From: a virus
Taxonomy: Monodnaviria > Loebvirae > Hofneiviricota > Faserviricetes > Tubulavirales > Inoviridae
IMG/VR virus record: IMGVR_UViG_2675903606_000001
Strand: one strand, 5' to 3'
DNA length: 7,125 nucleotides
Positions within the stretch are counted from its first letter, which is position 1; every line of letters starts with the position of its first letter. The translations under genes were made by a program, and so were the position numbers. Below, in pieces: positions 4,430-6,030 of the stretch. Under the pieces are notes generated by a model that worked only from the letters and a program-made list of their open reading frames with translations, was not told the origin of the DNA and did not search any database.

Positions 4430-5689
4430 ATGAAAAGGAAAATATTAATTATTTCCGCTATTCTTATTTCTTCTTTTTCACATGCTGATTCATGGGAAAG
4501 CATTACTAAATCTACTTTTCAAAGCTCTGCCTATTCTGAAAGTAAGCAAATAACCAACCAAGATGGCACTAAACAAACTGTTTATTATATTGATGCAGCT
4601 ATGCAGGCTTCTGCCTGTCAGGGGGCTAAAGACAGTGCTCAGGGTGTTTTTACTCAGGTTAAACCAACTTATGAGGGAGTATGGCCTAACTCTGAATTCC
4701 GTCTTGTGTTTTCTGACGCTTGTACCTACAGCGACTCTCCGGGCCAGAAAGATAAATACTGGAATTTAACCGCTTATATTATCGGTGATATTCAGCGTTC
4801 TATTCCTGATGAAAAACCCTCCGAGCCTACACCTGAAGAAATTTGTGAAGCTAAACCTCCTGAAGAAGGTGTATTTAATAATGTCTATTCTTATGATGGT
4901 GATCGTTATATTTATTATAACGGTTGTGAATATGAGGCCACTGGCGTCATTGTTTGCCAGGGTGATGGCACTGTTTGTGCGGCGACATGGAAGCCTACCG
5001 GAACCGTAGCCGATCCTTCAGATAAGCCTTCTTCTCCTGCTGGCGATGGTGGGGATACTGGAGGCGGGGATACGGGGGGTGGTGATACTGGAGGAGGTGA
5101 TACAGGCGGTGGTAACTCAGGTGGCGGTAACTCAGGTGGCGGTAACTCAGGTGGTAATGGCTCAAGTATTACCAAAGGAGATATTCAGTCAGCTATTGAA
5201 GGTGCTTCACCTAAAATGGCCAGTGAGATTCATGATAAGTTAACAGAAAAAGACACCTCATCTGATGATAAAAAATCGGCTGATGAACAGACTAAAAATA
5301 ATATAAATCGTCTTGGTGACGCTATAAATAACCTTACTCGCGGAGCCGGACGTTTTGCTGATCCTTCTGGCGGTGATTCTCGTTATGGGAAAGGGGATTC
5401 CGAATTAGACAGTGCTTCAACATTGGCTGAATCCGAATTAGGAATAGCTAAAGATTCTCATGGTGCTTTATGGGAAGCATTCCTGAATAAAGGTGCTATG
5501 CTCCCTAGTTTACCTAATGGTAATGGTTGTTCTGAACTTGTTATTTTCCCCGGTGAAATTTATCAGATTGATATTGAATGCGATAAATTACTTACTATCA
5601 AAGATGCGCTTTCATGGATTTTTTATTGCCTTACCTTCTGGTATGTATTTACGTCTTTAACCTCATTACTTCGTAAAGGAGGTGAGTAA
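4430..5689 (+). CDS. gIII: Adsorption / minor coat protein pIII (419 aa) with internal TolA-binding-like domain and Gly-rich linker
   Basis: True start taken as ATG 4430 ([19 protein letters not shown] signal peptide); the track's 4295 start overlaps gVIII and its terminator. Residues ~137-190 ([55 protein letters not shown]) align with the M13 pIII N1 TolA-binding domain (…CLAKP…NVWKDDKTLDRYANYEGCLWNATGVVVCTGDETQCYGTWVPIG as recalled). Followed by a (DTGGG)4(NSGGG)3 linker and a hydrophobic C-terminal anchor. Confidence 0.9.
5042..5164 (+). repeat. Tandem 15-bp repeats encoding the Gly-rich pIII linker
   Basis: Four imperfect units GATACNGGNGGNGGN (5054-5113; DTGGG) followed by three near-identical GGTAACTCAGGTGGC units (5111-5155; NSGGG). 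The antisense reads as the PPELPPP… shadow ORF. Confidence 0.8.
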
Positions 5690-6030
5690 TGCCTTTATTA
5701 TTAGGTATTCCTGCACTATTGCGTTTTCTTATTGGGCTTGTTCCTTTATTTATTGGCTATGTGGCAAGCTTCCTCGCACGCCTTGCGACTAAAACAGGAT
5801 TGATAGCTGTAGCATTAGTTGCATTAATTACAACAACTGTCACTCTCTTAATGCAATATCTTGCTGAGGTTATGTACAATGGCCTTCCTGCTGATTTTTC
5901 ACATTTAATTGCATCTGTCTTACCAGACCATTTTCAGGCCTGTGTTAATGTCATTATGATTACTCGAATTAGCGTTTTTGTTTTCGATTTAAAACAAAAA
6001 TTCCTTGATTATGCAAACAAGGTGATTTGA
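5689..6030 (+). CDS. gVI: Minor coat protein pVI (113 aa)
   Basis: [14 protein letters not shown]… and …FVFDLKQKF… align with M13 pVI (MPVLLGIPLLLRFL…IFIFDVKQKI…). Strong RBS AAGGAGGTGA; ATG overlaps the gIII stop (TAATG). Confidence 0.9.
   Translation: MPLLLGIPALLRFLIGLVPLFIGYVASFLARLATKTGLIAVALVALITTTVTLLMQYLAEVMYNGLPADFSHLIASVLPDHFQACVNVIMITRISVFVFDLKQKFLDYANKVI

Follow-up and report, generated by a model that had tools for sequence, protein, structure and literature searches.

The stretch of DNA analysed here (the window) is the 7,125-nt inovirus record IMGVR_UViG_2675903606_000001 of IMG/VR, and our subject is the open reading frame (ORF) at 4430-5689 on its plus strand, which lies at the gene III position of a filamentous phage genome. 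We conclude with high confidence that it encodes an IKe-type (Lineavirus-type) attachment protein, pIII, of a temperate filamentous prophage that is often found in tandem at the Escherichia coli dif site and has the organization of CUS-1/Ypfφ. The gene and the parts of its product are as follows.

4430..5689, + strand: gene III, attachment (adsorption) protein pIII/G3P, 419 aa plus stop; the TAA overlaps the gene VI ATG at 5689
4430..4486, + strand: signal peptide, residues 1-19, with the mature protein starting DSWES; aligned with the annotated 19-aa IKe pIII signal peptide (SNA/DNWES) and predicted to be cleaved after Ala19
4487..4804, + strand: first mature domain, residues 20-125, ~106 aa; homologue of the IKe pilus-binding domain (IKe 'N2'), with Cys63 and Cys98 conserved
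4805..4837, + strand: Pro/Glu-rich connector, residues 126-136; 9 of 11 residues identical to IKe, I2-2 and PEar6
4838..5005, + strand: TolA-binding domain (N1), residues 137-192; PF05357, 4EO1; conserved Cys 139, 166, 176 and 183
5006..5164, + strand: Gly-rich flexible linker, residues 193-245; (GGGDT)x4 then (GGGNS)x3
5165..5686, + strand: C-terminal domain, residues 246-419; Cys367/Cys384, and a hydrophobic membrane anchor followed by RKGGE
5609-5671, + strand: hydrophobic membrane anchor, about residues 394-414, inside the C-terminal domain

Translation of 4430-5689 gives 419 codons with no internal stop. The window is 99.8% identical to a stretch of the chromosome of E. coli SCPM-O-B-12142 (locus L004), where RefSeq annotates the same start (L004 12430 corresponds to window 4430) and names the product "attachment protein". 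A TTG at 4295, which would give a 464-aa ORF, was rejected because that ORF runs into the end of gVIII and because both the alignment with the IKe signal peptide and RefSeq favour the ATG at 4430. The identical 419-aa sequence had been deposited earlier at NCBI as WP_053879657.1 ("attachment protein") and CTT58835.1, and PHROG 4150 ('virion structural protein') matches the whole length of pIII (E = 4.5e-258). The window protein is a further member of the IKe-type G3P family, previously deposited and correctly named.

Two matches identify the first mature domain. PF21443, the Pfam 'G3P, pilus binding domain', matches residues 22-125 over positions 2-105 of its 105 (E = 8.5e-25; 87.4 bits against a cut-off of 27), and PDB entry 4EO0, the pilus-binding domain of phage IKe, matches residues 20-128 (E = 1e-27, 47% identity). 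A pIII model was built with AlphaFold2 (AF2) on 57 homologues and compared with known structures using Foldseek. Its predicted local distance difference test scores (pLDDT) were about 87-94 in the first domain and 78-91 in N1, and the modelled first domain matched 4EO0 with a template modelling (TM) score of 0.96 and a root-mean-square deviation (rmsd) of 1.0 Å over 106 columns. Judged by its sequence and by the predicted model, the first domain is a clear homologue, in sequence and in fold, of the IKe N-pilus-binding domain. A layout with the pilus domain first and the TolA domain second is the solved IKe architecture and is already captured by Pfam; nothing about it is structurally new.

The domain that follows the connector is equally recognizable. 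PF05357 (N1) matches residues 135-176 (32.3 bits against a cut-off of 20.8), the fd/M13 N1 structures 1g3p, 2g3p and 1tol match residues 137-223 (E = 1e-12 to 1e-15), f1 pIII is 52.6% identical across residues 137-191, and 4EO1, the IKe TolA-binding domain, matches residues 130-195 (E = 1.2e-25). The modelled N1 agrees with 4EO1 (TM 0.89, rmsd 1.1 Å, 72% identity) and also matches the N1 of the If1 N1-TolA complex 2X9A. An earlier note on this DNA, written from the letters alone, had placed the homology to Ff N1 at this internal position, preceded by a domain of about 110 aa and a Pro/Glu-rich connector; the matches above bear out the first point and the translation bears out the second. Further downstream, the C-terminal domain of f1 pIII in the virion structure 8B3O aligns to residues 196-416 (E = 4e-07), C367 and C384 are invariant over the 57 homologues, and many positions of the anchor segment from W396 to R415 are invariant or nearly so. 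The Gly-rich linker, modelled with pLDDT below 50, is encoded by 15-nt tandem repeats at 5048-5154, and variation in repeat copy number between relatives gives pIII proteins of 414, 419 and 424 aa. One otherwise 99.8% identical copy, in NZ_CP144928, has a Gly-repeat array 15 nt (5 aa) shorter than that of the window; family-wide, pIII lengths span 401 to 488 aa, mostly owing to this array.

Along its whole length, from signal peptide to last residues, the window pIII is collinear with the pIII proteins of IKe, I2-2 and Erwinia phage PEar6, to which it is 54-56% identical and with which it shares all eight Cys residues. Architecture and domain order are identical throughout IKe, I2-2 and the Erwinia phages PEar1-6 (genus Lineavirus), from the signal peptide to the C-terminal anchor; gene III of this group has the same position relative to gVIII and gVI, with its stop overlapping the gVI start, and the folds of the two N-terminal domains (4EO0, 4EO1) are those predicted for the window protein, whose Gly linker is the shorter. 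Identity to IKe amounts to 47% in the first domain (20-125), 82% (9/11) in the connector (126-136), 75% in N1 (137-192), 66% in the Gly-rich linker and 51% in the C-terminal domain (42% in its first half). A first domain at 47% beside a C-terminal domain at 51% shows no disproportionate divergence. Such a disproportion does separate PEar6 from IKe (53% in the first domain against 84-94% elsewhere), and it was considered for the window protein and rejected on these values.

These comparisons overturn the remaining structural claims of the earlier note, in which the first domain was without recognizable similarity, novel and divergent. The PF21443 and 4EO0 matches contradict the first of these, and the level of identity to IKe and the fit of the model to 4EO0 the others. 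Nor is the Pro/Glu-rich connector a peculiarity of this protein: IKe itself carries PDEEPSEQTPEE at that position. Alignment with IKe and I2-2 makes the domain a homologue of a known pilus-binding domain and structure prediction returns a known fold, and novelty is thereby refuted. What stands is the domain order, which is that of IKe, with a domain of pilus-binding type first and the TolA-binding domain second; given that order, the N-terminal domain is likely to be the primary receptor-binding determinant. "Reversed order" is apt as a description, but it involves no inversion of the Ff arrangement: as in IKe, what stands before the conserved N1 is a domain of pilus-binding type without relation to Ff N2.

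The pIII of Ff phages (M13/fd/f1) shares with the window protein a homologous N1 (about 50% identity), the C-terminal domain and Gly-rich linkers, but there N1 stands at the N-terminus, with a non-homologous, F-pilus-binding N2 after it, whereas the receptor domain of the window pIII precedes N1. The window protein is not an Ff-type G3P (N1-N2-CT): its N1 is at 137-192, and fd N2 (9G8E) gave no significant Foldseek match to the pIII model (probability 0.38, TM 0.31). The pIII of If1 (2X9A, 2X9B), a phage whose receptor is IncI pili (PMC7911016), has an N1 of the same fold (TM 0.87, 29% identity) and a distantly similar C-terminal domain, but its receptor-binding domain shows no similarity to the window first domain. 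The carriers differ from the closest protein relatives as well. Lineavirus members are episomal, plasmid-dependent phages of 6.6-6.9 kb, whereas the window belongs to a temperate prophage that is integrated at dif and has a module of repressor and cargo genes running leftward. When the whole window was compared with the phage collection by megablast, similarity was confined to 421 nt, in gene I against I2-2; the relationship is visible at the protein level only.

The chromosomal setting was read from two E. coli strains. SCPM-O-B-12142 carries two full tandem copies of a roughly 9.08-kb unit, with a repeat period of 9078 bp and the secretin gene at the end of each full unit; a third matching place seems to be one more copy, incomplete, lying at the 5′ edge of the examined locus. 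A perfect 28-nt dif lies after the last copy, at L004 17163-17190, beside ydeP-ydeS, so that this locus displays integration at the chromosomal dif, in tandem, with an intact dif at the 3′ end. UM146 has a single prophage of the same layout, whose 3′ end is at a perfect 28-nt dif (L005 10770-10797) beside hipBA. In the window itself, positions 86-116 (GGTGCGCATAA-TGTACGACTCG-TTATGTTGAAA) form a dif-like sequence with intact XerC and XerD arms and an 11-nt central region, corresponding to the junction between tandem copies. The two prophages are not alike everywhere: the repressor region of UM146 has a 60-aa ORF where the window has a 148-aa HTH_3 protein, and the cargo ORFs differ too. Two related records may be mentioned here. 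NZ_CP140410.1, a circular Salmonella enterica sequence of 7938 bp deposited as a plasmid, encodes a pIII 84% identical to that of the window, and its size makes it a probable replicative form of a related filamentous phage. P0064, a 508-aa predicted protein from an E. coli assembly, combines the secretin domains PF03958 and PF00263 with PF21443 and probably arose by fusion or rearrangement where two tandem copies meet; a similarity between pIV and pIII is also remarked on in the PEar paper.

Ypfφ/CUS-1 is described as an 8.7-kb phage with 13 ORFs in two opposite transcription directions and a repressor adjoining the replication gene; its integrated copies stand in tandem at dif, where the 3′ end has an intact dif and the copy junctions have imperfect ones, and the cargo ORFs by attL are variable (PMC4266046). 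The window loci have in common with CUS-1 (E. coli O18:K1:H7) and Ypfφ (Yersinia pestis; PuvA/YPO2277) a unit of 8-9 kb, opposite transcription and a repressor next to the replication gene, together with the order of replication, morphogenesis and secretion, the tandem dif arrangement and the variability of cargo at attL. On this shared organization the window prophage is a putative member of the CUS-1/Ypfφ clade. None of the five loci returned by the scan of genome contigs was from Y. pestis, and tblastn of plasmids gave no Yersinia record.

For the working of the protein we propose the following sequence of events, in which homology supports the architecture, the membrane anchoring and virion assembly, and the fold of the first domain, and in which we infer the binding events. 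After removal of the 19-aa signal peptide, the hydrophobic helix at the C-terminus would hold pIII in the inner membrane, and pIII would be incorporated with pVI into the terminating end of the virion. During infection the first mature domain (20-125), with its predicted IKe pilus-binding fold, would capture the primary receptor, and N1 would bind TolA domain III. The short connector, nearly identical to that of IKe, would join two N-terminal domains that probably fold independently, leaving the TolA site unlocked, unlike in Ff. The Gly-rich linker would supply flexibility and reach, and the C-terminal domain would drive uncoating and DNA entry. In the 2012 study of 4EO0 and 4EO1 by Jakob et al., the IKe N-terminal domains reportedly fold independently, with a TolA site that is always exposed. 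Because the short connector is nearly identical, an IKe-like independent arrangement, with the two domains structurally separate, is likely for the window pIII by analogy.

Several points weigh against this account. The pTM of the whole model is low (0.32), which makes its inter-domain contacts unreliable, and the independence of the two domains is carried over from the IKe study. Binding of a receptor and of TolA by the window pIII is argued from homology, and at 47% identity the receptor specificity of IKe cannot be transferred to the first domain. The link to CUS-1/Ypfφ, finally, is drawn from organization and not from sequence comparison with the CUS-1 and Ypfφ reference genomes.

How widely this pIII occurs, and which of its parts vary, bears on what the first domain might recognize. 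A large protein search yielded 67 clusters, some with hundreds of members and nearly all already annotated with PF21443 and PF05357, from Salmonella, E. coli, Yersinia enterocolitica, Citrobacter koseri, Izhakiella, Pantoea, Proteus, Providencia, Pectobacterium and Arsenophonus. Among 5426 complete E. coli genomes the gene is present in 60 (about 1%), nearly always chromosomal and frequently as several copies. The common allele, of UM146 type and labelled 'MULTISPECIES [Enterobacterales]' in the database, accounts for about 48 of these genomes and the window allele for about five; the two are about 81% identical in nucleotides and 85% in amino acids. A pIII 81% identical to that of the window also appears on JARKOR010000214.1 (L007), assigned to a 'Candidatus Nanosynbacter' metagenome-assembled genome (MAG) of Patescibacteria; almost certainly the contig is of enterobacterial origin and was mis-binned.

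Across 32 representatives of the family, variability is highest in the first domain, whose mean pairwise identity is 34%, compared with 64% for N1 and with 46% and 65% for the first and second halves of the C-terminal domain. Some members are mosaics with respect to the window protein, being 32% identical in the first domain and 89% in N1 (P0024) or 27% and 88% (P0045), a pattern such as would be expected of a specificity module swapped by recombination. Of all parts of pIII, the receptor domain thus varies most and has recombined most often, and it therefore constitutes a defined module of ~106 aa for experiments on receptors and host range. Within the clade of the window prophage, identity to its first domain is higher: 83% for the common E. 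coli/Salmonella allele, 78% for Izhakiella and 75% for Y. enterocolitica. The ratio of non-synonymous to synonymous substitution rates (dN/dS) in this clade is 0.12-0.16 for the first domain and 0.02-0.10 for the others; by this measure all pIII domains are under purifying selection, and positive selection on the first domain of the prophage clade was rejected. Between IKe and I2-2, dN/dS is about 1.7 in the pilus-binding domain (10 amino-acid changes and almost no synonymous change) and 0.08-0.21 in the other pIII domains; the counts are small, but they hint that the receptor domain of these two phages was recently under positive selection. An argument that IKe and I2-2, at 91% identity, differ in pilus specificity was dropped, since IKe is listed as using IncI2 pili too.

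A target other than N or I pili, as the earlier note suggested, is plausible, and what the first domain binds can be read in two ways. In one, it has been retargeted to a chromosomally encoded surface structure that is conserved in Enterobacterales, be it a non-conjugative pilus, a fimbria or another envelope component, or else it merely enhances an entry driven mainly by TolA. We put this at a little under an even chance. The prophage is chromosomal, at dif, in about one in a hundred complete E. coli genomes, and purifying selection has kept the first domain across genera, while the family-wide mosaicism of first domain and N1 suggests repeated receptor switching. Ypfφ infects both Y. pestis and E. 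coli TOP10, a broad host range, and deletion of pilA or psaA had no effect, its receptor remaining unidentified (PMC4266046). Against this, the connection with Ypfφ depends on shared organization and on the 'MULTISPECIES' label of the UM146 allele. In the narrower form that the first domain of the dif-prophage clade, to which CUS-1 and Ypfφ would belong by their organization, recognizes a chromosomally encoded surface structure conserved among Enterobacterales and not an IncN/IncI2 pilus, we hold the idea tentatively. If it is true, the isolated domain could serve as a probe for the long-unidentified receptor of Ypfφ/CUS-1, and the shuffling of first domains against a conserved N1 would be a record of repeated receptor switches. 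In either reading, chromosomal dif prophages of E. coli, Salmonella and their relatives, resembling the virulence-associated CUS-1/Ypfφ, carry a receptor domain of IKe type.

The other reading keeps the receptor class of IKe, with the first domain binding the tip of a plasmid-encoded conjugative pilus of IncN/IncI2 or a related type, so that spread of the prophage would depend on plasmids. The receptors listed for IKe are the tips of IncN and IncI2 pili (PMC7911639), and the window domain is homologous to that of IKe and, in the model, identical to it in fold. Identity is only 47%, however; close alleles (75-83% in the first domain) occur in prophages of E. coli, Salmonella, Y. enterocolitica, Citrobacter and Izhakiella, and a Rosenbergiella pIII is 81% identical; and the similarly organized Ypfφ has the host range noted above. 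We regard this reading as unlikely, at about one chance in four.

It is very improbable that the gene belongs to a decaying, non-functional prophage remnant whose pIII has lost its part in infection. Certain relatives do carry disruptions, such as the IS21 insertion of strain A20, and there are partial copies. In the window, however, the ORF is intact, the eight Cys residues are conserved and the morphogenesis module is complete, followed in the full locus by the secretin gene; every domain shows a dN/dS far under 1, tandem copies are present, and one relative probably has a replicative form. To the original proposal of a novel domain in the first ~110 aa, without kinship to known pilus-binding domains and acquired before N1, we give almost no credence: the domain is the least conserved of the family and hence hard to spot by eye, but it matches PF21443 end to end and 4EO0 in both sequence and predicted fold.

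The neighbours of gene III agree with its assignment to an IKe-type prophage. Pfam matches and the RefSeq annotation of L004 place it between gVIII and gVI in an inovirus morphogenesis module, in the window order gII, gV, gVII, gVIII, gIII, gVI, gI (Zot), with the secretin gene next in the full locus; three leftward genes lie ahead of the replication gene. Apart from gene III, the features of the window are these.

1928-2374, - strand: HTH_3/CI-type repressor, 148 aa, one of the three leftward genes
2546-3598: replication protein G2P (Pfam)
3610-3927: G5P single-stranded DNA-binding protein (Pfam)
between G5P and Gp8: small gVII-type ORF
4141-4383: major coat protein Gp8 (Pfam)
4393..4410, + strand: G+C-rich hairpin GGGGCA-CTCGT-TGCCCC, then TTTATT, in the gap between genes VIII and III; probable attenuating terminator
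5689-6030: DUF5455 protein at the pVI position (Pfam)
from 6031: Zot/pI protein (Pfam)

The hairpin at 4393..4410 has a centroid fold of -12.1 kcal/mol (z -1.9), only modestly better than shuffled sequences, and it was absent from the output of the consensus terminator scan. At the corresponding VIII/III location the IKe annotation lists a 'stem loop structure, pot. transcription termination'.

Neither of the other two leftward ORFs has a Pfam match. The one at 1407-1829 (- strand) encodes a 140-aa membrane-like protein, a counterpart of which is kept in the UM146 prophage (WP_000089310 versus WP_000089312). The one at 190-1314 (- strand) encodes a 374-aa protein with predicted hydrophobic segments, and other cargo genes take its place in relatives. 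A stretch of 72 unannotated nt at 108-179 includes a strong hairpin at 121-153 (GGCCGCTGCG...CGCAGCGGCC) that would terminate this leftward ORF. The same 72 nt are about 93% identical to a stretch found on roughly 500 E. coli plasmids; on the one examined, pEC244_2, that stretch lies just 3′ of a gene of the STM4504/CBY_0614 family, which is the cargo gene in some variants of the prophage.

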